From: Candidatus Enterousia sp. | GTDB lineage: Bacteria; Pseudomonadota; Alphaproteobacteria; Rs-D84 | Length of the DNA stretch: 35,076 bases | Reading direction: 5' to 3' | NCBI GenBank assembly: GCA_045631065.1 | Contig: JAZQUA010000041.1 | Span: forward strand, 1 to 35,076 | In this document: positions 3,542-35,076 of the stretch, in pieces | How the letters are laid out: the number at the start of each line of letters is the position of its first letter | How positions within the stretch are numbered: position 1 is the first letter of the stretch | Program-made: the position numbers and the translations under genes | Notes under the pieces: generated by a model | Told to the model about the DNA's origin: nothing | The model's database searches: none | Seen by the model: only the letters and a program-made list of their open reading frames with translations

Positions 3542-5128
3542 ATGGGGAAAAAGAGTAGATTTTCAACAATGTTTTGCAAAAAACCGATTGTTTTTTGTGG
3601 TATTTTTGTGGTGGCATTTTGCCTGGGCATTGATGTTGCAACTGCGTTATGCAACAGATATAATCCTGTTGGACCAGGAAAATATTGTCAACATACCGTA
3701 GAGTACACGTGCCCTAAGAACTGTTATTGCAAAGGAACAACAAAAGGTGAAAAGCTTAGCATAACTTGGGCAGATGGTGTATCCAAAGGTTGTTCGAACA
3801 GATGGTCCAAAGTTAACAGCGAATTATGCAACGACAGATACGGTGTGTGTTTGTGTCCCGAAGGCACAACATCAAATGCTGGCGCAAAATCCAAAAACGA
3901 TTGTTTCAAAGTAACAGACACAACCTCTTCTGACACTGCTACACAAGGTAAATCTTGCAGCAACAGCAATCCCGCGCCTGTGGGTTCATATTGTGGTGCG
4001 TTATTAACAAAAAAATGCAAACCAGGCTGTTACTGCACAGGCGGTGGTAATTTTACTTGGGTCGCCGGCGATGTAGAAAAAGGTTGTAGAGACAGATGGA
4101 GTAAGGTTACATCAGAACTAAATTCCAAGGGTGTCAAACTTTGTCCCGAAGGGTACACATCTGTCGAAGGCGCAGGTAAATTAGAAGACTGTTTCTTAAA
4201 TGGGCATTCTGATATAAAATATAAACCAATAACCTGTGCCCCGGGTACGTATTTGCCCGCAAACAGTAAAGAATGTGCCCCTTGTCCAACAGATGACAAA
4301 AAAATTTGCCCTGGGGCGAAAAGTGTATACCCATCAAGCACTTTGAACCAAGATCTTAAGCCATGTCCCGCAAACCAAGTGTCAAACGCAACTAGGACAG
4401 AATGTGTCGACAGAGAAAAGGAATACATAGAATGCCCTGAGGGAGAATATGCAGTTGTGGCAACAGACAGATCTAAATGCAAAAAATGTCACGGAAACAA
4501 TTACGTCTGCCCAGGCGGGAAATGGGAAAAAACAATCGGCGAACATGGTTTAGAAGAATGTAGGGGTAACACAAAACCAAATGCAGACAAGACAGCATGC
4601 GAAGGCATAACAGTAACATGCCAAGCAGGCGAATATATACCTGCAAATTCAATAGAATGCACAAAATGCAAGGATGCAGCAGAAGCAGCCGGCAAACTGT
4701 GCAAGGGCGGAACACTGACCCCATCGAATACAGAAGCCGTAGGCTTGTCCACATGCAGTGGCACAATGGTACCAAACCCAGATCATACAAATTGCGTTGC
4801 ACCGCCACCAGATTCATATGAATGCAGTGCAGGACAATATTTACCAAAAAACACCAAAGAATGCGCCCCATGTCCAGAAAAGCATACCTGCGGCGGTGGT
4901 ACATTTGTGTTTAACGAAACCACAGACCAAGGTGCAGACCCAGTAATACAATATGCTATTCCAAAAGAAGTTTTGGCATATGGCGAACATGATAAAGACG
5001 CACCATTAAAAGATCACTGTTGGTATATTGCAAATCCAGATAAATACAAAGAATGTGTTATGAAAGGGATTCAAAAAACAATTAATGAAATAGCTAATAT
5101 TTTAAAAGGCTCTGATGATTCAGAATAG
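3542..5128 (+). CDS. Secreted cysteine-rich repeat protein
   Basis: Signal-peptide-like N-terminus; 45 Cys; two RWSKV-containing modules and four C-x-x-G-x-Y...C-x-x-C...C-x-G modules. Confidence 0.8.
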   Translation: MGKKSRFSTMFCKKPIVFCGIFVVAFCLGIDVATALCNRYNPVGPGKYCQHTVEYTCPKNCYCKGTTKGEKLSITWADGVSKGCSNRWSKVNSELCNDRYGVCLCPEGTTSNAGAKSKNDCFKVTDTTSSDTATQGKSCSNSNPAPVGSYCGALLTKKCKPGCYCTGGGNFTWVAGDVEKGCRDRWSKVTSELNSKGVKLCPEGYTSVEGAGKLEDCFLNGHSDIKYKPITCAPGTYLPANSKECAPCPTDDKKICPGAKSVYPSSTLNQDLKPCPANQVSNATRTECVDREKEYIECPEGEYAVVATDRSKCKKCHGNNYVCPGGKWEKTIGEHGLEECRGNTKPNADKTACEGITVTCQAGEYIPANSIECTKCKDAAEAAGKLCKGGTLTPSNTEAVGLSTCSGTMVPNPDHTNCVAPPPDSYECSAGQYLPKNTKECAPCPEKHTCGGGTFVFNETTDQGADPVIQYAIPKEVLAYGEHDKDAPLKDHCWYIANPDKYKECVMKGIQKTINEIANILKGSDDSE

Positions 5129-7142: not shown

Positions 7143-7318
7143 TTTTATACCACTTTTGTGGTCAGTTTAACATATTGCCACATCAAAACAAGAAATAAAA
7201 ATCACCAGAATTAATGCCGCCCATAGCAAATACATAGCAAAAAACCTTGCGTATGATGTTTGGCGACATCAAAATTCGATGCCGCCAAACAATACCTGGA
7301 ACAATTGATTCAGATAAA

Positions 7319-7855
7319 TCAATAACCACTATAGTCTGCATTATTGTATAGCCGCCATTCTGCATCACGTCGCCCATCCAAGATTCCTCCATTTCTAAAC
7401 GCACGCCACGAGTCTTCTAAATTTGGGTAAATATTGCTTTTATATTTATTGTCATTCAAATATTTTCTAACCGTTGATTGGTATAGCCCACGATTTCTAT
7501 TTTGTGGTGCAGCAGACCCGGCCCCAATATTAAATACCAGCGACACCAATGCGTCATATTGGCTTTGTGTCATATTTAATATAGCATCGGCAGAGATTTG
7601 TTCATTTATTGTGTTATAGGTTGCTTGCAGGTCTTGTTCCAACAGTTCCGTTGCCTGTTGTTCCGTTAAACCAGCACTAAAATCTTCACCTGGCTTTACC
7701 AAATGTCCATAACCAATTGTTGCACCAACTGGCAATGGAACTCCTGCAGGTACAGGTTTGCCCGTGGCATCATCGTATATAACGTGTTTTCCATTAACTT
7801 TGACCGAACCTTCTAACCCTTTCAACCATTCGATACCTTTATCACTCATTTTCAT
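7319..7855 (-). CDS. Phage-type lysozyme (glycoside hydrolase family 24)
   Basis: MKMSDKGIEWLKGLEG...YDD...TIGYGH...LLEQDL...QSQYDALVSLVFNIG...RRDAE; start set at ATG 7855 with RBS AAAAGGTGA. Confidence 0.88.
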   Translation of the reverse strand: MKMSDKGIEWLKGLEGSVKVNGKHVIYDDATGKPVPAGVPLPVGATIGYGHLVKPGEDFSAGLTEQQATELLEQDLQATYNTINEQISADAILNMTQSQYDALVSLVFNIGAGSAAPQNRNRGLYQSTVRKYLNDNKYKSNIYPNLEDSWRAFRNGGILDGRRDAEWRLYNNADYSGY

Positions 7856-7856
7856 A

Positions 7857-7997
7857 TCAGTCACCTTTTGTAAATAAAAAACGCCCACATATGTGGGCAA
7901 CAAAATTGTCAATATTTGATGTTAAGTCGATACATCCAGCCGAGCCAGGAACCCAACCGCCATGAATACTAAAATCATCACAACCGTATGTTTGGGT
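7857..7997 (-). pseudogene. Orphan C-terminal fragment of a second Tlde1/DUF2778-like toxin
   Basis: Start-less frame TQTYGCDDFSIHGGWVPGSAGCIDLTSNIDNF..., 23/32 aa identical to the catalytic tip of the 8380-9426 protein; preceded by an in-frame TAA. Confidence 0.8.
7864..7900 (-). terminator. Terminator-like hairpin directly upstream of the lysozyme RBS
   Basis: GCCCAC-ATAT-GTGGGC followed by GTTTTTTATTT and ACAAAAGG on the minus strand. Confidence 0.65.
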
Positions 7998-8011
7998 TTA
8001 TTTTTGAACAA

Positions 8012-8365
8012 CTAAAATTTTGCATAATGATATAACAAAGTACCAAGCAAAGAATCTGTCCAAGATATTATAATCGGACTTAACGCAAGCCAGAAAGATA
8101 CTTTATAATTTTTCTTATACAAAAAATACAATGATACTGGAATAAAAAACAACAGCGTGGCACAAGAAGATACCAGATTTGTTAAATATACATCTGCACT
8201 ACGCCATGCCCAGCCCATAGATTCACCGCCCCATGGACAATAATTAAACGGAAACGCATCACGACATTCTTTGATAAAAAATTCATAATAATCAGTAAGC
8301 AGTCCATATAAAAGCAATATATTTATACCAAGACAAATTATCGTGCCACGTTTCCATTTTTGCAT
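8012..8365 (-). CDS. Small membrane protein, candidate immunity protein
   Basis: ATG 8365 with RBS AAAAGGG, 14 nt after the toxin stop; about 3 TM segments with a loop containing C...CPWGGESMGWAW; immunity role inferred from position only. Confidence 0.6.
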   Translation of the reverse strand: MQKWKRGTIICLGINILLLYGLLTDYYEFFIKECRDAFPFNYCPWGGESMGWAWRSADVYLTNLVSSCATLLFFIPVSLYFLYKKNYKVSFWLALSPIIISWTDSLLGTLLYHYAKF

Positions 8366-8379
8366 ACATAACCCTTTTG

Positions 8380-9426
8380 CTAGTATTTTACATGTACAAT
8401 CAGGTCGTTTCCAGTACTTTCTAGCCAAGATGTAAAAGCATTTATTTGCCCAGTCATATCAATACAGCCGGCCGAACCCAAATTCCAACCACCATGAATT
8501 GAGAAATCATCACGACCGTATGTGTCGGTTTCTTTTGATGGCTCCAACCATACACGAGAGCTGCCCCACGAATAATAACTCCCTGGCCAGAAACCAATTT
8601 GTTCCCCCACAATAGCAGCTACCCCTAACACAGCGTCAGGCAGCGTTATATACTGCAATTTTTCCTGCCTTGCAACGTATGTGCCTTCGGGGATTGGTCC
8701 TGTGTCTTTCAGGTTTTGGTATTCGGGGCTTCTGTATCCATCTTTGCCCGATACTGCATCCCACGACATAATTGGTTTATCGTTTTCGTACAGTGTAAAT
8801 TTCTTACCATCAAATACCGCATATTGTCCTGGCTTTACATTCACCGGCTTTTCAAAGGTCGCATTTTCAATGCTTTTATTTCTCTCTTTCTTTTCCAGTT
8901 CTTGGTTTATTTTTACTTCTGTCCAGTGGCCGGGTTTGACAGCGCCACGCTCTTTGATTTTTTGTAATTTTCTGAACTTTTCAATCGCATCAAACAGTTT
9001 CTGGTTCGGATACGGATTGGGATTGTCGGCACTTTCGCCAGCACGGGTATCGGGTTCATAGCAATCCAACTGGGTCAGTGATTTTTTTAACCATTCTATA
9101 TCACGTGTATCAACATTTCTGTCCGGGGCAACCGTGCCATGCAGGTTCGATTTGTGCTGTTCTGCGTTTTTGATATCTTGTGGACTCAAAGAACAACCAC
9201 AATGCGGATGAAACGGTGGACCTGATACAACAACCCCGTCAACAATCAATGCAACGCATCCACCACATTCACCACCACAATCAACAGTGGCGTATGTATG
9301 TTCGGGTTCGTCTTCTTCGTATTCTTCCAATTCTTCATCTGTTTCTTCGACTGGCGGTTCTGCGTAGATATCCAGAACCAATTCGCCATTTTCATTCCAG
9401 GTGACCTCATCCCAAATATTGCTCAT
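8380..9426 (-). CDS. Polymorphic-toxin-like protein: MuF-like Cys/His motif + peptidoglycan-binding-like domain + Tlde1/DUF2778 (L,D-transpeptidase-fold) C-terminus
   Basis: CGGC...DG...PPFHPHCGC (MuF-type motif); WLKKSLTQLDCY...LFDAIEKFRKLQKIKERGAVKPG (PG-binding-like); AVSG...GPIPEGTY...WG..RVWLEP...RDDFSIHGG...GSAGCI (DUF2778); RBS AAGGAG before ATG 9426. Confidence 0.75.
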   Translation of the reverse strand: MSNIWDEVTWNENGELVLDIYAEPPVEETDEELEEYEEDEPEHTYATVDCGGECGGCVALIVDGVVVSGPPFHPHCGCSLSPQDIKNAEQHKSNLHGTVAPDRNVDTRDIEWLKKSLTQLDCYEPDTRAGESADNPNPYPNQKLFDAIEKFRKLQKIKERGAVKPGHWTEVKINQELEKKERNKSIENATFEKPVNVKPGQYAVFDGKKFTLYENDKPIMSWDAVSGKDGYRSPEYQNLKDTGPIPEGTYVARQEKLQYITLPDAVLGVAAIVGEQIGFWPGSYYSWGSSRVWLEPSKETDTYGRDDFSIHGGWNLGSAGCIDMTGQINAFTSWLESTGNDLIVHVKY

Positions 9427-9538
9427 CAAAACTCCTTTTGTTAAATAAAAACACCCGCACGTGGCGGGTAATAAAAAAGACGACCAAATGTCGTCCGCTG
9501 AATAAGTGCATTATACCATAAAACACGAAAATTTTCAA
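9427..9538 (-). promoter_or_regulatory. Sigma70 promoter and leader with two terminator-like hairpins upstream of the toxin gene
   Basis: TTGAAA(9538-9533)-17-TATAAT(9515-9510) with extended TG; hairpins GACGAC/GTCGTC+TTTTTT and ACCCGC/GCGGGT+GTTTTT. Confidence 0.7.
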
Positions 9539-9623
9539 TAAAAAATAAAAAACGCTATTCGGCGTTGTTTTATTTCTGGTGGGGACACAGGGACTCCCTC
9601 GCACGCTGCTTTGCACCGGCTAT

Positions 9624-9676
9624 GGGGCATTCCTGACAAATCGCCAGCACTTCGTTTGGCTCTTTTACTCATTGTC
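9624..9676. repeat. 53-bp dispersed structured repeat, copy A (downstream of tRNA-Lys)
   Basis: 47/53 identical to 19467-19519. Confidence 0.88.
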
Positions 9677-9709
9677 GAACCCTTTTACGGGTTCTTCGTC
9701 CCGCGTCAC

Positions 9710-9747
9710 AGAAATAAAAAAAACGCCATTCGGCGTTGTTTTATTTC
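9710..9747 (-). terminator. Terminator after tRNA-Lys
   Basis: AACGCC/GGCGTT stem with long flanking A/T arms and a T-tract on the minus strand. Confidence 0.7.
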
Positions 9748-9823
9748 TGGTGGGGACACAGGGACTCGAACCCTGGACCCAATGATTAAAAGTCATTTGC
9801 TCTACCAACTGAGCTATGTCCCC
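9748..9823 (-). tRNA. tRNA-Lys(TTT)
   Basis: GGGGACATAGCTCAGTTGGTAGAGCAAATGACTTTTAATCATTGGGTCCAGGGTTCGAGTCCCTGTGTCCCCACCA; 76 nt cloverleaf, encoded CCA. Confidence 0.97.
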
Positions 9824-9915
9824 AAAACCGGACCCGGAAAGGGAAAACTTACGTTCTATTTCCGTGGTTCGGGGAAAATTTTGACATATATAAAAACAAA
9901 AATCAAGAAAAAATA

Positions 9916-11849: not shown

Positions 11850-11947
11850 AAATTATACATATTTTTCGACAAAAAAACACAGGAATTATTGATTTTTTAG
11901 CATTTTTGCACTATAATAACATGAGTAAAACAAAAGGCACATACGAT

Positions 11948-13762
11948 ATGGCATTTGAAACCAAAAATTTCATTATTGATTTAGCGATGCAGTTAAATCT
12001 GAACAACATGGACGATGCTACGCGTGCCAGATTGGCTGACCTGAAAAAAAAGGGTGTTGCAACCAAAGATCAAAATTCGTGGGAACCCGGCAAGGAACCC
12101 CCAACGATAGATACAATAACACCTGCAACTGCAACAACCCCAGCAATATATAAATATAATGGAAATCCTGTCGCTGGTGGTGCCGCTCCTGTGGTTAATG
12201 ACTTAAATGATTTGTACTTAAAACTGGTAGTCATATTACGCGACTTGGCGGCAGATTCTGAATTAAGTGCCGAAGATCCTGTAAAATCATTTTTAAACAA
12301 TTTTTATGGTGCCGGTAAGGCTGTTGAACCTTATACAGCAAGCGCCCTACCCGCAACAGATGCGGCAGATATTGGAAGATACATTTCAGCAAACAAAGTT
12401 CTGTTGGCTGCAGGGATGGGTATTTCTGAAAACGATTTAGATTCATTGGCTGGAACTTTAACTGGTGGCACGTACAATACCAATGCAAAATCATTAAAAA
12501 CATTCGACAAATTTTTGGTCGGATTATATAACTGGAACGATAATGGTGGCGCGCGCCCAATACCAGGTGCTTTGCCCGGCTGTTTAATCACAGGTGGCGA
12601 TATAGATTATGGAAAATTATTTGGCATAAGAAGCACCATTAATACACCAGTCAATCCAAATTCTGCACAATTAACACAATTGTCAGACAATATAAATAAA
12701 ATGTTTGGCAAATTGGTGTCTAATGAAAAATTATTTGAAAAATTTCAAAGCAAAGACGAAGACGGCAAAGTTTCAAATTGGATTTCCAAAGGTATAAATA
12801 AATCCAATTATAAAACCGGTGATAATGCACTGGCACCAAAATATGATGATCGCAAACAATTTTGGGATGACACCAAGGCAAAGATACAAGATTGGTATGT
12901 TGACACGCTTGGAAAATTAGAACAAAAGCATACTCGTCACCTATATACAACAAATGCCAGATATATTGTTGCAGGATTGATAAAAAAAGGGGTCAAACCA
13001 ACAGATGGCACCGGCAAAATATTAGATACATTGGATGCAATAAATGGTGATTTACCAAACCCTGTACAAAAACAAGTTAAATGGATTAAAGACACCCTTA
13101 AAAAAATGAAAGGCACAAATTTCTTTAAGGATGCACTGCGTGATGGCGACCAGATGCGCCAACTGGTTCAAGAAATCATCAAGGCTGCCGCACACGATGG
13201 AAAAAAAGAAGAAGCCAAGGTTGCATTGGAAATGCTGGCTGTAATGCGATATACGTTAACAACATCGTCTGTGCGCGATCAATTGAAAAAGACAGAATTT
13301 AAACTGTTTTCTGACAGCAGTTTGTCTTTTAACAAAGGCAATAAATTTATGCAATCAATGACAAATGCGCTGGATAAAACATTAAAGTTTGGCATGATGG
13401 CTGCGTTTGAAGTTGGAAACTTTGCAAAAAATTCAATCAAACAACAGGGCTTAAAATTTGGCAGTGGCACACAAAATCTGGACAAACGAACAACAGACAG
13501 CGTAGATTATGCAGACCCAGACAAACAACAAATTATGGAAGAACTGTTTGGTTTTTGGGATTTTGTAAATTCTTCTGCAAATACCAAGGATTATAACATA
13601 TTCCAAAGACATTCAAATGCACAAAAAAAGCAAGATGCAATCAACAAGGATAAAATTACTGTAAATCTGACAGCAGGATCGCTGGATTTGGAACATAATA
13701 CAAACCAACAGAAACAGTTCTTGGAATATCTGCGTGATAATAACATTGGACGCGCGGCTTGA
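11948..13762 (+). CDS. Large hypothetical protein (about 604 aa)
   Basis: Long ORF with genome-like codon usage; start set at ATG 11948 after AAAGG (ATG 11922 also possible); no family recognised. Confidence 0.75.
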   Translation: MAFETKNFIIDLAMQLNLNNMDDATRARLADLKKKGVATKDQNSWEPGKEPPTIDTITPATATTPAIYKYNGNPVAGGAAPVVNDLNDLYLKLVVILRDLAADSELSAEDPVKSFLNNFYGAGKAVEPYTASALPATDAADIGRYISANKVLLAAGMGISENDLDSLAGTLTGGTYNTNAKSLKTFDKFLVGLYNWNDNGGARPIPGALPGCLITGGDIDYGKLFGIRSTINTPVNPNSAQLTQLSDNINKMFGKLVSNEKLFEKFQSKDEDGKVSNWISKGINKSNYKTGDNALAPKYDDRKQFWDDTKAKIQDWYVDTLGKLEQKHTRHLYTTNARYIVAGLIKKGVKPTDGTGKILDTLDAINGDLPNPVQKQVKWIKDTLKKMKGTNFFKDALRDGDQMRQLVQEIIKAAAHDGKKEEAKVALEMLAVMRYTLTTSSVRDQLKKTEFKLFSDSSLSFNKGNKFMQSMTNALDKTLKFGMMAAFEVGNFAKNSIKQQGLKFGSGTQNLDKRTTDSVDYADPDKQQIMEELFGFWDFVNSSANTKDYNIFQRHSNAQKKQDAINKDKITVNLTAGSLDLEHNTNQQKQFLEYLRDNNIGRAA

Positions 13763-13890: not shown

Positions 13891-14454
13891 ATGACACGTG
13901 TTTTACAAATCAGACGCGGTACAGCCGCACAACATAAAAACTTTGTCGGGTTGCCTGGCGAAATTACAATGGATACAGATAATAAAACAATTCGTCTGCA
14001 CGACGGTATAACATTGGGTGGGATAACTGTTGGCACTGGTGGCAACGGTGATAACGATTTTGATATCAACAGTGTACCTGATGAATTCTGGGCAGACATT
14101 GTTGCAAAACATATGCCTGCCCCATTCAAAGTTATTGAAACAAAACAAATAACTTTTACAAATAATTCCGCAGGCAAAGAACTGGTCGTTGGTGGTACAG
14201 ACATCCCAAAATTTATACAAACTGTACTGGTATGTCAATCAGCCGAAGCAGGTTATTCTGTCGGTGATGAAGTGTGGAGCTGGGGTATCGGAAACCGCGC
14301 AAATCCAAACCCACAACCCGCATATGACCAAGACGGACTGAGAATTAAAATGATGATAAATAACGAAGCCTTTTGGGTTAACCACAAGAACACAGGTGCA
14401 AAAACATCGATAACAGATACAAATTGGCGCATTTTATACCGAGTTTACTGTTGA
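13891..14454 (+). CDS. Phage fibre-like protein with Mtd_N (major tropism determinant N-terminal)-like domain
   Basis: N-terminus LQIRRGTAAQHKNFVGLPGEITMDTDNKTIRLHDGITLGG matches the Mtd_N/phage fibre head consensus; RBS AAAGGA. Confidence 0.75.
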   Translation: MTRVLQIRRGTAAQHKNFVGLPGEITMDTDNKTIRLHDGITLGGITVGTGGNGDNDFDINSVPDEFWADIVAKHMPAPFKVIETKQITFTNNSAGKELVVGGTDIPKFIQTVLVCQSAEAGYSVGDEVWSWGIGNRANPNPQPAYDQDGLRIKMMINNEAFWVNHKNTGAKTSITDTNWRILYRVYC

Positions 14455-32787: not shown

Positions 32788-33048
32788 TTATTTTATCACT
32801 GCACCTTTTATCAGGGTCAGGTCTTCTTTGATATCATCAATCTTGATTTGGATTCTGGCAATACCTGTTTCCAATATTGTTGTTCTGTTTTCCAGCGCAG
32901 TTATACGATTATCAACACGTTCCAATTCCAACACAGAAAAGTCTTGCTTGGCTGCCCAATAAATTACCCCTGCGATAAACGCGATAATAAACCAACTGTC
33001 ACGCAAAAATTCAATCAGACCATTTACAGGGTGTGCTTTCGTTTTCAT
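32788..33048 (-). CDS. Small single-TM coiled-coil protein (phage-associated, possibly holin-like)
   Basis: One TM (SWFIIAFIAGVIYWAA) followed by heptads RITALENR...IDDIKEDL; last gene of the terL-portal operon. Confidence 0.65.
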   Translation of the reverse strand: MKTKAHPVNGLIEFLRDSWFIIAFIAGVIYWAAKQDFSVLELERVDNRITALENRTTILETGIARIQIKIDDIKEDLTLIKGAVIK

Positions 33049-33051
33049 GAT

Positions 33052-33249
33052 TTATTCCCCCCGTCCCCGCGATACAAGCGATTCAATCTGGTGCACCAAC
33101 ATACGCTGTGATTCCAATGAACGCAGTTCTGATTCTGTGGCATTTGCCCCCAATACGCGTTCAATCGTTATCTGACGCAAGTGCATCAGCACACGCTGCC
33201 CAGATGCACCAGAAAATGTTTTGGCATATGCCTGTTCTATATCTGTCAT
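33052..33249 (-). CDS. Bbp19-like phage protein
   Basis: YAKTFSGASGQRVLMHL...ESQRMLVHQIESLV, typical of the small gene after podovirus-type portals; start overlaps the portal stop. Confidence 0.75.
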   Translation of the reverse strand: MTDIEQAYAKTFSGASGQRVLMHLRQITIERVLGANATESELRSLESQRMLVHQIESLVSRGRGE

Positions 33250-34481
33250 AATGCACCCCCGATAACACTTTCCATCGCGGTCATTTGTGCGATTGGTGCA
33301 ATATATTTCAATTCTGCATCGCTGTTTAACTTGATTGGTTCAATTAGGCCGCGCGATGACAAAATCTGTAATCCCCTGTCACATAGCGGTCTGATAAATT
33401 CGTGTACCAGACGACCATATGTTGCCCCCAAAACGCGCATCATATCTGCGTTACGCGCCATTATTTCTGTTGCTGTCATTTCTTTTTCACTTAACAGCCC
33501 CAGTCTGTCAGCCAATAATGTATGACGTATGCGTTCACGCAGGTCTTTTAAAATAATTTGTGACACATCAAAGTTTGCCGCACTGGTCAAGGGTGTAAGA
33601 CCTGATGAACCAACTGCCTTTGGTATAATTGCCCCAGGGGTTAAATTAATATTATTCAGATTTATAACACCATCGTCATCGGCCTGCCAAATACCAGAAA
33701 CAGCAATTGTCGCATTTTTTAATACCAGTTCTACGACCTTGTTCGCTGTTTTTATATCTGGTAATGCGCGCATAATTGGACTGCGACCGTACAATTCGCC
33801 ACTGGCCACAGACCAGCGAAATACGATATATGGATTTGTTTCAAATGTGCCGGTCGACACGATATTATTTTCAATATCACCATCAACATCCAGCCATGCC
33901 GTAAATTCTGTCCCAACCAAGCTTTGCACCAGTTTTAATTGCAAATTTGGATCGTTTTTTATCGAATCTCGCAAATTTACAGGTGGTGTCCATGTAGGAT
34001 ATTTTTCCATAACCTCAGTCGCACTCATTGAAGTCGTATGAAATATTGCATTTGGTAAAATTGCAATATCTGACATTGGTATCGCTGTAAAATTAAACGC
34101 AGATGATGCCCCAATTGGATTTTGTCCCATAAATAAACAAGCAGTACCCAATGTGACTAAATCCATATAGCACTGATGTATTGTCGTATAGAAATTAGAA
34201 TCATTTAAATGCGCACGCAAAACAGATGTCGCATAATCTGCATCTGGTGACAAATCGCTTTCACGCACCAGTTGCAACCACATTGATTCTGGTGGTGTCA
34301 GCAATGTGTACATAGATGCTGCTAAATTATCTGCTGCATCTGATGCTGTTGCATCATACAATGTTGCCAAATCATTGTCTGATGTTGGCATTGTATATCT
34401 GCGCGCATCATCCCAACGATTAACCCATGGTTCACGCAAACCAATTGCGCGTTTGTAAAGTTGCAATAAGTTATTTTGCAT
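33246..34481 (-). CDS. Phage portal protein (T7/BPP-1-type head-tail connector)
   Basis: YDATASDAADNLAAS, SNFYTTIHQCYMDLVTLGTACL, FRWSVASGELYGRSP..ALPDIKTAN, MTATEI. Confidence 0.88.
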   Translation of the reverse strand: MQNNLLQLYKRAIGLREPWVNRWDDARRYTMPTSDNDLATLYDATASDAADNLAASMYTLLTPPESMWLQLVRESDLSPDADYATSVLRAHLNDSNFYTTIHQCYMDLVTLGTACLFMGQNPIGASSAFNFTAIPMSDIAILPNAIFHTTSMSATEVMEKYPTWTPPVNLRDSIKNDPNLQLKLVQSLVGTEFTAWLDVDGDIENNIVSTGTFETNPYIVFRWSVASGELYGRSPIMRALPDIKTANKVVELVLKNATIAVSGIWQADDDGVINLNNINLTPGAIIPKAVGSSGLTPLTSAANFDVSQIILKDLRERIRHTLLADRLGLLSEKEMTATEIMARNADMMRVLGATYGRLVHEFIRPLCDRGLQILSSRGLIEPIKLNSDAELKYIAPIAQMTAMESVIGGAL

Positions 34482-34510: not shown

Positions 34511-35076
34511 TTAAATCTTGAAATTTGTATTTGCTGTAAATGTCTGAATTGTATACCCCAATGGGCGCACAACAGATGGCACTTGTGCGATAGCACCCGC
34601 GACCGCATCCAGGCCGTCATCGTGTCCGGTATACCCCACTGGCGACCAGCCAATCATTTCAGACAACAATGGTGTTTTTTGAATCCTGGTATGAGCATAC
34701 AGGCGTCCAGTACTTAACACCGGTTCAATCGCAGCCAAAATTCTGTCTGATTTTGATTTTGTATGTAATATGCGATTGATATATATCTTGCAACCGCGAC
34801 GCGACGCACAATCATGCATAATTTCTGGCACACCAATTCCAATACCATTTGTTTCAATTGTTATGTGACCAATCCCGCGCATATTCATAAAGTCAATTAT
34901 CATATCGCACTGACGCGACAATGGAAATTGTTCAGAATCAGATACCGTCAGGTATAAAATATCGTGAATAAATATGCGCTTGTTTTTATCATCGCGATAT
35001 ATCAGAACGCATGCACTGCCATCACGTCTACTGCGCCCTGTGGATGGATCCCAATATAAAACACAACCGGAAATCA
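34511..35076 (-). CDS. Phage terminase large subunit, C-terminal nuclease domain (5' part outside window)
   Basis: Frame open to window end: YWDPSTGRSRRDGSAC...IETNGIG...KSDRILAAIEP...GRL...HDDGLDAVAGAI. Confidence 0.87.
   Translation of the reverse strand, partial: ISGCVLYWDPSTGRSRRDGSACVLIYRDDKNKRIFIHDILYLTVSDSEQFPLSRQCDMIIDFMNMRGIGHITIETNGIGIGVPEIMHDCASRRGCKIYINRILHTKSKSDRILAAIEPVLSTGRLYAHTRIQKTPLLSEMIGWSPVGYTGHDDGLDAVAGAIAQVPSVVRPLGYTIQTFTANTNFKI

Follow-up and report, generated by a model that had tools for sequence, protein, structure and literature searches.

We analyzed a 35,076-nucleotide (nt) stretch of DNA from Candidatus Enterousia sp. (contig JAZQUA010000041.1 of assembly GCA_045631065.1), referred to here as the window, and found that it carries a cassette of two co-oriented minus-strand genes extending from position 9426 down to 8012. 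The first gene encodes a predicted peptidoglycan-targeting toxin (P0001), and the second encodes a small membrane protein (P0002) that is a candidate for the matching immunity factor.

8380..9426, minus strand: toxin gene P0001, 348 amino acids (aa), with its ATG at 9426
8012..8365, minus strand: P0002 gene, 117 aa, starting 14 nt past the P0001 stop codon

The reading we favor is that this locus is a capsid-targeted peptidoglycan effector with its immunity gene, and that it represents one cassette of a polymorphic effector system present in Enterousia and its relatives. Taken as a whole, this reading is evenly balanced between being right and being wrong. The part concerning an effector-immunity pair and its polymorphism, which is drawn from sequence comparisons, is highly probable, with toxicity itself being a prediction. 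Delivery via a domesticated T7-like particle is a tentative proposal that falls slightly short of an even chance. The domain make-up of the toxin, the polymorphism of its family, the covariation between toxin ends and downstream genes, and the existence of orphan modules are direct observations.

The window is one entire contig of a 920-kb, 72-contig genome whose completeness (93%) bounds all genome-wide negative results given below. It encodes BamA, and therefore an outer membrane is present in the Enterousia cell. Close relatives of the locus are labeled Candidatus Enterousia or uncultured Alphaproteobacteria and come from animal guts, and the accessible text of PMC12306168 describes Candidatus Enterousia as a genus with reduced genomes in the order Rs-D84. 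Relatives of the toxin were taken from a protein collection clustered at 90% (244 matches, with the best 120 listed), and family-wide counts refer to 121 sampled genomes of the family. To describe the toxins, we distinguish three N-terminal types: type A is the P0001-like module of about 185 aa, type B is a longer N-terminus, and type C is a third form represented by P0099. Partner genes were analyzed by clustering the toxin ends and the downstream proteins of 24 toxin genes of at least 300 aa from the window and from retrieved loci.

The original prediction made from this DNA is supported wherever it could be examined by computation, and, as it had proposed, the C-terminal half of P0001 is a Tlde1-type domain.

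8383..8829, minus strand: Tlde1/L,D-transpeptidase-fold domain, residues 200-348, assigned from Pfam, Foldseek, and the residues H311 and C321

The Pfam model Tlde1_dom (PF10908, DUF2778) matches residues 223-335 with an E value of 2.1e-7 and by a narrow margin (31.8 bits against a cut-off of 30.1), and Tlde1 relatives of P0001 reach 33.9-40 bits with the same model. YkuD is also matched (E 5.2e-5; 24.3 bits against a cut-off of 23.4), and Pfam yields no further match at E values up to 0.1. An AlphaFold2 model of P0001 built on 33 relatives has a mean predicted local distance difference test (pLDDT) value of 78.7 and a predicted template modeling (pTM) score of 0.70, and the Tlde1 domain exceeds a pLDDT of 90 over most of its length. 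When this model was compared with the Protein Data Bank (PDB) using Foldseek, the best matches were the Salmonella Tlde1a structures 7uo8, 7uo3, and 7uma (E 1.8e-6 to 3.4e-6; template modeling score by target 0.57-0.58; identity 22-23%), followed by YkuD-type L,D-transpeptidases. Furthermore, H311 and C321 in the HGG...GSxGC stretch are invariant among the 33 aligned relatives, and their spacing equals that of H121 and C131 in Tlde1a. The variable stretches of the domain lie at about residues 253-285 and at 314-348, as judged by comparison with a Tlde1 protein of a different subtype (P0005).

A polymorphic toxin is expected to have homologues that share its N-terminus and differ in their C-termini, and this is what we observed. 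According to precomputed Pfam annotations, the best 120 of the 244 relatives end in Tlde1/YkuD (82 proteins), GH24 (PF00959; 24 proteins), GH108 (PF05838; 8 proteins), or DUF4407 (1 protein), and the remaining 5 have none of these. The type-A module is retained at 62-93% identity (at least 80% in most of the first hundred matches) while the C-terminus varies, and type-A alignments span 51-57% of the query in most of the listed matches. Exchange is also evident from the other side, in that the Tlde1 domain of P0001 recurs at about 99% identity behind a type-B N-terminus and is found again behind type C (P0099; locus L055). Contigs from other samples likewise turn unlike the window at 8859 and 8908. 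This is the joint between the N-terminal module and the toxin end, and swapping of modules at that point would be expected to produce such a break.

A search with residues 1-190 against 1.84 billion representative sequences gave 46 matches with E values of 0.001 or lower and 14 at 1e-10 or lower; therefore, the type-A module is narrowly distributed. The ends found in 20 representative matches that were scanned include GH108, GH24, Tlde1, serum-amyloid-A (SAA)-like, and Ntox44 domains. The type-A module is found in 25 of the 121 family genomes and type B in 55, so both are accessory. Three relatives of the PG-binding/MuF module (P0132, P0140, and P0153) deserve separate mention in that they end in a serum-amyloid-A-like domain (PF00277) or Ntox44, and P0140 joins PG_binding_1, Phage_Mu_F (37.3 bits, above the cut-off), and the SAA domain in a single chain.

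Toxin ends also occur on their own. Orphan arrays of toxin ends with immunity genes are present in three of the retrieved loci (L043, L053, and L054), and the window holds two displaced modules immediately downstream of the cassette.

7896..8012, minus strand: displaced 3' fragment of another Tlde1 subtype, with one in-frame TAA
7882..7899, minus strand: terminator-like hairpin before the GH24 module, resembling the hairpin at 9452-9470 (family D2)
7319..7855, minus strand: headless GH24 lysozyme, 178 aa, PF00959 E 1.6e-18

The Tlde1 fragment shares 62% identity with residues 295-333 of P0001 and 85% (34/40) with the end of P0005, and this homology is also visible as a 78-nt DNA repeat (7927-8004 and 8459-8536; 77% identity). 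It starts at a conserved block, …SKET.TYGRD.FSIHGG…, and orphan fragments in L043 and L053 open with this block as well. The headless GH24 protein is 96% identical (174/182) to residues 197-378 of P0076, a type-A fusion. Because the homology to P0076 begins at 7867, four codons ahead of the GH24 ATG, this gene is a displaced toxin C-terminal module; equipped with a start codon and a ribosome-binding site, it may in addition be produced on its own. Its matches in PHROG are to endolysin (E 3.2e-22) and to an "internal virion lysozyme motif" family (E 2.4e-5). No partner gene follows this module in the window.

The second gene of the cassette, P0002, had been described as a small protein with three transmembrane segments located 14 nt downstream of the toxin. 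The spacing is correct, and two strong hydrophobic segments (residues 7-25 and about 59-82) are clear; the third (about 89-113) is weaker, leaving the three-segment description plausible. P0002 matches no family in Pfam or PHROG, and its own family is found in 19 of the 121 genomes. Relatives of P0002 directly follow the "TGQI..FT.WL.STG" subtype of Tlde1 end in seven loci, with N-termini of types A, B, and C; elsewhere they are extra members of immunity arrays. As the identity over the last 120 toxin residues declines from 82% to 62-72%, the identity of the immunity protein to P0002 declines from 92% to 27%, in a relationship that is not strictly monotonic. Conservation within the family is concentrated in the loop between the first two segments (invariant C34, C43-P-W-G, M50-G, and W54). 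Since positive charges are located at the N-terminus and after the second segment, the predicted topology places this loop outside the cytoplasm.

Each of the other toxin ends comes with a characteristic partner. GH108 ends have one 144-145-aa secreted protein downstream (3/3), GH24 ends of the "FLKAN" group have one lipoprotein of 259-324 aa (3/3), and those of the "RGIY" group have one lipoprotein of 111-113 aa (2/2); N-termini of type A and of type B are represented in each of these sets. Other Tlde1 partners resemble P0002 in layout, at 15-19% identity. In the Tlde1 "IIKVEY" group, the first downstream gene encodes a 108-aa membrane protein in seven of eight cases. Locus L019 is an exception in form (a 150-aa frame past a 223-nt gap), and in L013 the 107-aa protein D12 comes first and the 108-aa type second. 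All non-Tlde1 partners begin with a signal or lipoprotein leader, and the genes that accompany GH24 and GH108 ends often lie on the strand opposite the toxin gene. No export signal is seen in the toxins, whereas the candidate immunity proteins all carry either membrane segments or a leader of the signal or lipoprotein kind. By analogy, envelope targets combined with toxins of this kind would follow the logic of the periplasmic effectors of type VI secretion systems (T6SS).

Given that the partner follows the toxin-end subtype across N-terminal types, P0002 behaves as a candidate cognate immunity gene, which agrees with the proposal made originally. Co-folding of toxin residues 190-348 (33-row alignment) with P0002 (10-row alignment) produced a score of 0.07 against a mark of 0.32, which speaks neither for nor against binding. 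For the other immunity types, one distant match was obtained in the source genome, on contig C14 (34% identity over 202 residues of a 366-aa protein).

The N-terminal half of P0001 consists of three regions.

9292..9426, minus strand: acidic disordered N-terminus, residues 1-45, pLDDT 37-43 in the first four 10-residue blocks
9187..9291, minus strand: Cys/His motif CxxxCxxC ... PPFHPxCxC, residues 46-80, a minimal MuF-type core
8866..9114, minus strand: helical PG_binding_1-like region, residues ~105-187, with helices at 107-119, 142-154, and 167-187

Residues 1-45 include 18 aspartate or glutamate residues and no lysine or arginine, and the segments of the model with pLDDT below 50 stop at residue 40. 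Several positions in this part (W5, W10, G14, L16, and P25) are conserved among relatives. Because no 19-residue window of P0001 reaches a Kyte-Doolittle value of 1.6, the protein is considered to have no signal peptide. The depiction of P0001 as a 348-aa protein with an acidic N-terminus and no signal peptide is therefore accurate.

The Cys/His motif is the feature that may link P0001 to phage heads. C50, C54, C57, H73, C76, and C78 are invariant among the 33 aligned relatives, and residues 44-68 are modeled as beta hairpins (pLDDT 67-77). Profile comparison finds in P0001 the C-terminal motif of MuF proteins, C-x2-C ... P-x-H-P-x-C-x-C. With hhalign, the type-A motif aligns to the type-B module over 32 columns (probability 89%) and over 16 columns (probability 96.7%) to Clostridia proteins that match the MuF family PF04233; in three of these proteins that were scanned, the PF04233 matches range from 25.8 to 36.3 bits (E 1.9e-5 to 1e-8), with one of the three above the cut-off. 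The PF04233 match of type-B proteins (E 1.5e-5 to 1.8e-5) reaches 26 bits where the cut-off is 29.6, and it spans only profile positions 62-111 of 112. Among the 120 listed relatives, no type-A protein has a precomputed PF04233 match, and all 12 proteins with a match are type B. The same layout of motif, PG_binding_1, and GH108 is present in another alphaproteobacterial metagenome-assembled genome (L036; PF04233 E 0.022), and a PHROG "head morphogenesis" family gives a weak match to residues 69-214 of P0001 (E 0.0023). A PDB sequence search with the type-B alignment left the N-terminal module unmatched and reached lysozyme chains via the C-terminal part only. Thus, "minimal MuF-type core," the label used in the original prediction, is a fair one on the strength of the motif alignments, while the PF04233 family model does not recognize P0001. 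A separate observation concerns the 1540-aa protein P0134, in which nine stretches match the Cys motif (query residues 45-75) and PKD domains stand at the end; therefore, the motif can recur as a repeat outside a MuF context.

The assignment of the helical region as PG-binding-like was also well founded. The helices are modeled with block pLDDT values of 65-92, mostly at least 80. PF01471 is detected in P0099 (E 1.4e-6; 28.8 bits) and, below its cut-off of 23, in the type-A relative P0101 (E 5.9e-4; 20.4 bits). In the search with residues 1-190, the part from 94 to 185 retrieved proteins aligned through PF01471, and 18 of the 20 scanned matches carry this domain at an E value of 0.001 or lower. 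For P0001, the PG-binding label is accordingly a prediction founded on its relatives, on retrieval by residues 94-185, and on the helical model.

The original prediction placed the cassette outside a prophage, which is correct and at the same time incomplete, because conserved T7-like particle genes are present in the genome, with terminase and portal genes at the end of the window. The particle itself is predicted from these genes.

33246..34481, minus strand: T7-type portal, PF12236 E 2.6e-83, candidate docking partner of MuF-type proteins
34511..35074, minus strand: terminase large subunit, C-terminal part, phrog_38 E 1.3e-20, cut by the contig end and continued on contig C22

The rest of the terminase is encoded on contig C22, together with a T7-type scaffold, the major head protein, tail tubular proteins A and B, and a fiber stub. 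None of the 16 open reading frames (ORFs) scanned on C22 matches internal virion proteins (the gp14-16 ejection core). The portal is present in 106 and the capsid in 108 of the 121 family genomes, nearly always as a single copy (three genomes have two matches or pieces). Their frames are mostly intact, with one in-frame stop in some cases, and their identities range from 54% to 95%, being at least 70% for all but about ten portal matches. In the places listed, portal and capsid genes share a contig and are separated by about 9-10 kb. The T7-like particle genes are vertically inherited across the family.

Several relatives place toxin genes next to this particle. In two genomes (G049 and G035), a type-B MuF-GH24 or MuF-GH108 gene directly follows the portal gene, and in G035 a lipoprotein gene lies on the other strand after the MuF-GH108 gene. 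A third genome (G063) has a short MuF-GH108 gene with a secreted partner about 1 kb past the portal, and in a fourth (G018) a MuF-motif match directly after the portal is cut by the contig end. The post-portal location is the canonical position of muf genes, according to the accessible text of PMC5576092. In addition, of the 106 genomes with a portal, 65 match either N-terminal query, compared with 1 of the 15 without one; all these genomes are kin and thus non-independent. This co-occurrence of portal and toxin is suggestive; the genomes are related, and the portal-negative ones mostly belong to other genera. Other delivery machines were also sought in the 93%-complete source genome. There was no match to TssC (VipB/TssC), the only T6SS family searched, to VirB4, the ATPase of type IV secretion systems, or to TonB_C and TonB-dependent receptors.

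In the mechanism that we propose, the MuF-type tag would direct packaging of the toxin in the head of the T7-like particle that this lineage conserves, and the particle would eject the enzyme into the periplasm of an attacked cell. The wall would be damaged there unless a cognate immunity protein were present. For the cassette in the window, the conserved, probably periplasm-facing, disulfide-capable loop of P0002 may block the incoming Tlde1 domain. New modules for C-termini and immunity proteins would enter by recombination at conserved blocks, and such events may have left the displaced Tlde1 3' end and the headless GH24 downstream in the window. In a bolder version that we consider doubtful, the T7-like particle serves, at least partly, as a capsid-loaded weapon in which MuF-tagged hydrolases replace the lost gp14-16 proteins and are fired into the periplasm of neighboring cells, making it a kin-discriminating, head-delivered bacteriocin from a domesticated podovirus. 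Strain-specific hydrolase-immunity cassettes at tRNA-adjacent hotspots would then decide survival of a particle strike.

A number of findings weigh against the proposed identity of P0001 as a capsid-targeted enzyme. First, the catalytic motif of Tlde1a is given as H-x(n)-(S/T)-H-G-C, with H121, H129, and C131, in the accessible text of bioRxiv 10.1101/2022.08.05.502956. P0001 reads S-A-G-C where Tlde1a has (S/T)-H-G-C, so that alanine replaces the second histidine, and therefore its activity may differ from that of Tlde1a. Second, P0001 has no Phage_Mu_F or PG_binding_1 match in Pfam at E values up to 0.1, and a PF04233 search of the entire source genome returned nothing at E values up to 10. 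The likeness to MuF is limited to about 16-32 columns of the Cys/His motif, which could be a generic zinc ribbon. In the viral contigs of IMG/VR, the type-A query found no relative, and the type-B query found a single 13-residue motif match only.

The arrangement of the genes raises further objections. A distance of about 24 kb that includes housekeeping genes separates the P0001 gene from the portal, and type-A genes were never seen beside the portal among the 121 genomes. Moreover, the large terminase subunit is split into an ATPase part of about 200 aa and a nuclease part of about 280 aa, both in the source genome and in the single-contig relative G063, by a block of three opposite-strand genes that include dnaB and a helix-turn-helix (HTH) regulator, and particles may therefore not be made.

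L040 (contig C22), 23-337 and 3766-4383, and L065, 416-1264 and 4582-5181: terminase parts

Support for expression is also weak. Contigs from three RNA libraries (two studies) cover 7962-8859, which includes the immunity gene and the C-terminal half of the toxin, and two of them bridge the interval from toxin stop to immunity start without any difference; because RNA libraries can hold DNA, this is weak support for transcription. The N-terminal half of the toxin (8940-9424) has no cover in three RNA-library runs and almost none in one DNA run, a distribution from which we draw no conclusion.

Some of these facts invite other explanations of how the enzyme is used. The MuF-tagged hydrolase might be the wall-breaching entry enzyme of the particle, replacing a T7 gp16-type core, with the downstream protein acting as a superinfection-exclusion inhibitor. 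Phage T4 offers a precedent, in that Spackle blocks the gp5 tail lysozyme. Under this explanation, the diversity of toxin ends would reflect an arms race between entry and exclusion, not the killing of rivals. It would account for the canonical post-portal place of MuF-hydrolase genes in three relatives, for the lack of any internal virion protein match among the 16 C22 ORFs scanned, and for the match of the GH24 module to the PHROG "internal virion lysozyme motif" (E 2.4e-5); in the accessible text of PMC5512222, lysozyme domains of virion proteins are described as helping to breach the wall. However, orphan toxin ends arrayed with additional immunity genes are what competition systems typically show, and module relatives with Ntox44 and SAA-like ends are not entry enzymes. 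Furthermore, either N-terminal query is matched in only 66 of the 121 genomes, whereas the particle genes are near-universal. An essential entry enzyme is disfavored because it should be as widespread as the particle, and we regard this explanation as unlikely.

Two alternatives dispense with the particle, and for each we see little chance of being correct. In the first, P0001 acts like pesticin or colicin M, as a bacteriocin that exits by lysis or in vesicles and enters via an outer-membrane receptor. Its disordered N-terminus would be a translocation domain, and immunity would act from the periplasmic side, as with Pim, which protects from pesticin at the periplasmic side. The disorder of the N-terminus and the envelope location of the immunity proteins fit this idea, and two GH24 relatives weakly match Pesticin (PF16754) at E 4.6e-4 and 8e-4, below the cut-off. 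However, the N-terminus is acidic and not glycine-rich, there is no lysis or release gene beside the toxin, and the 93%-complete genome has no match to TonB_C or a TonB-dependent receptor (Tol proteins were not searched). In addition, relatives carry the type-B module, joined to the same toxin ends, after the portal.

The second of these alternatives, which we hold to be equally improbable, is that the effector is exported by another cellular machine, such as one resembling a type IVb pilus, or by an undescribed route, and that the Cys/His motif has nothing to do with capsids, being a generic zinc ribbon. The short extent of the MuF similarity and the position of the P0001 gene outside the particle cluster are what one would expect in this case. 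However, no effector class is known to reach the periplasm of a neighboring cell through such a pilus-like machine, and portal-adjacent type-B genes with the same toxin ends and with sub-threshold PF04233 matches tie the system to the head module.

A lysis cassette would combine P0001 as an endolysin with P0002 as a holin that together release particles. A PG_binding_1 domain joined to a catalytic domain, and swapping of the catalytic domain, are common in endolysins. Despite this similarity in layout, the endolysin family as the best PHROG match of the GH24 module (3.2e-22), the holin-like size and membrane segments of P0002, and the lack of any Pfam lysis enzyme among the scanned ORFs of the C22 cluster, we consider this explanation very improbable, because GH24 and GH108 ends are paired with lipoproteins or secreted proteins, often encoded on the opposite strand, and not with holins, the P0002 family conserves its extramembrane loop and not its membrane helices, several such membrane proteins occur in tandem with toxin-end fragments, and the partner tracks the enzyme subtype.

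The capsid-targeted effector that we favor can be described as a cross between MuF-type polymorphic toxins and periplasmic peptidoglycan effectors. In the accessible text of the papers on MuF polymorphic toxins (PMC5576092, and Apk2 and Bxa in PMC11699363), these proteins likewise combine an N-terminal MuF element with a variable toxin end and a small immunity ORF. A post-portal gene position is shared as well, by way of the three relatives of the Enterousia family, and capsid packaging is the proposed route in both. The differences are also substantial. Only the last 35 or so residues of the MuF domain are recognizable here, the P0001 gene occupies a cassette hotspot beside a tRNA gene instead of a prophage, and vertical inheritance sets the particle genes apart from those of a temperate phage. 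Nearly all predicted ends of the present system act on peptidoglycan, with immunity in the envelope, whereas the MuF ends named in PMC5576092 and PMC11699363 (nuclease, ADP-ribosyltransferase, (p)ppApp synthetase, and glutamine deaminase) act in the cytoplasm.

The main text and one supplement of PMC5576092 do not mention peptidoglycan, lysozyme, DUF2778, PF10908, PF00959, PF05838, or PF01471. PMC3482391 presents MuF as a phage-capsid-like trafficking mode, and its accessible text mentions neither DUF2778 nor YkuD and mentions lysozyme once, in another context. PMC11699363 states, in its accessible part, that the biological role of MuF toxins is unknown. In a literature search of titles and the beginnings of abstracts, we found no description of a system that joins MuF to peptidoglycan hydrolases or gene transfer agents to polymorphic toxins.

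The Salmonella T6SS pair Tlde1/Tldi1 (7uma), so far as the accessible sources describe it, shares with the cassette the domain family, the fold, the spacing of His and Cys, and the adjacent immunity gene, and the expected target is likewise the stem peptides of periplasmic peptidoglycan. In contrast to that pair, P0001 carries extra N-terminal modules, no T6SS sheath gene was found in the source genome, and the second histidine of the motif is alanine. Furthermore, the candidate P0002 is an integral membrane protein of no known family, whereas Tldi1 is a Sec-exported soluble protein.

Functional parallels exist in phages, since T7 gp16 and T4 gp5 with Spackle illustrate how a particle-borne hydrolase hits the wall from the periplasmic side and how a host-encoded periplasmic inhibitor protects cells that carry the element. 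However, these proteins are fixed parts of one phage, whereas the Enterousia genes form swappable tRNA-adjacent cassettes with orphan arrays. Arrays of orphan C-termini and immunity genes are known from contact-dependent inhibition (CDI), Rhs, and MafB systems, for which PMC3482391 gives a general account. The likeness extends to the order of parts, in which a full-length toxin is followed by displaced ends that start from a conserved block, each with an immunity gene. These systems differ from the present one in delivery module, in size (about 350 aa here), and in target compartment.

The lineage provides an unusually clean case for examining how MuF toxins are delivered. The genomes are tiny, the TssC, VirB4, and TonB families that were searched were not found, the conserved particle set is without ejection-core genes on C22, and the MuF-tagged enzymes have envelope targets and immunity. 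The combination of tiny genomes, a particle set, and envelope targets therefore leads to the prediction that head proteins are delivered to the periplasm. If this is true, domesticated phage particles would gain a role beyond gene transfer, peptidoglycan effectors would have an added delivery route, and there would be a new family of small membrane immunity proteins that act against Tlde1-type enzymes.

The remaining features of the cassette site lie upstream of the toxin gene.

9748..9823, minus strand: tRNA-Lys(UUU), ARAGORN, Rfam tRNA 77.5 bits, with the cassette hotspot just past its 3' end
9541..9596, minus strand: 56-nt unit, copy two (last 20 nt of tRNA-Lys plus a hairpin); copy one at 9712-9767
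9510..9538, minus strand: sigma-70-like promoter TTGAAA-17-TATAAT with TG extension, 11/12 consensus positions, a consensus match only
9452..9496, minus strand: two terminator-like hairpins in the 5' leader, at 9496-9478 and 9470-9452

Other toxin cassettes occupy the tRNA-Lys site in two relatives (L006 and L041), after a homologous gene of 228-231 aa and the tRNA gene. A second toxin site in relatives is located beside the tRNA genes next to frr (L003, L026, L042, L046, and L047). The 56-nt repeat (D3) has copies that are 95% identical and 171 nt apart, and its 20-mer occurs twice where 0.01 occurrences are expected. A 171-nt tandem duplication at 9541-9767 covers the 3' end of tRNA-Lys and the hairpin. 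A DNA contig from another sample jumps 170 nt between 9546 and 9717 and is therefore without one copy of the unit. We considered whether these tRNA-end repeats could be attachment (att) sites for the cassette and ruled this out, since the copies lie only 171 nt apart and both are upstream of the toxin gene; the single copy in the contig from the other sample also speaks against it.

The promoter and the two leader hairpins (9427-9545) hint at control by attenuation or antitermination, as far as can be read from consensus and folding patterns. The same leader precedes type-A and type-B genes in relatives (P0044, L044, and L045) and is readable as in-frame translation. When Rfam was applied to 7150-9900, the tRNA alone reached threshold. 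Within the source genome, the 119-nt leader yielded short matches only, the best of which (18/19 nt; E 0.077) falls in the ribosome-binding context ahead of the capsid gene. This match is too weak, and we dropped the idea of a regulatory leader shared by toxin and particle genes.

Near the portal of the window, no remnant of a MuF gene was found by tblastn, and two small conserved ORFs follow the portal gene.

32788..33249, minus strand: two small conserved post-portal ORFs, one Bbp19-like (65 aa) and one with a membrane segment and coiled coil (86 aa)

In G035, this Bbp19-like and membrane/coiled-coil pair follows the inserted MuF-GH108 and lipoprotein genes after the portal.

Additional genes may belong to the particle. 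Between the scaffold and capsid genes on C22 (L040, 8970-9356, minus strand) is a gene for a 128-aa Ala/Lys-rich protein with a sub-threshold Pfam match (E 4e-9) to the histone-H1-like nucleoprotein HC2. In the window, the plus strand at 11906-13762 encodes a 618-aa protein with no Pfam or PHROG family (the best ESM Atlas value of 0.85 is a lead only), and at 13891-14454 it encodes a 187-aa protein with an N-terminal Mtd_N (tropism determinant) domain and a PHROG tail-protein match. These two proteins, encoded 2.5 kb away from the toxin cassette, may also belong to the particle.

Finally, two other genes in the window stand apart from the system described above. At 3542-5128 on the plus strand is a gene for a 528-aa Cys-rich repeat protein with an N-terminal hydrophobic segment and no family match, and at 244-1734 on the minus strand is a gene for an OLD-family nuclease (AAA_15 plus an OLD-like TOPRIM domain), which is probably a defense gene.

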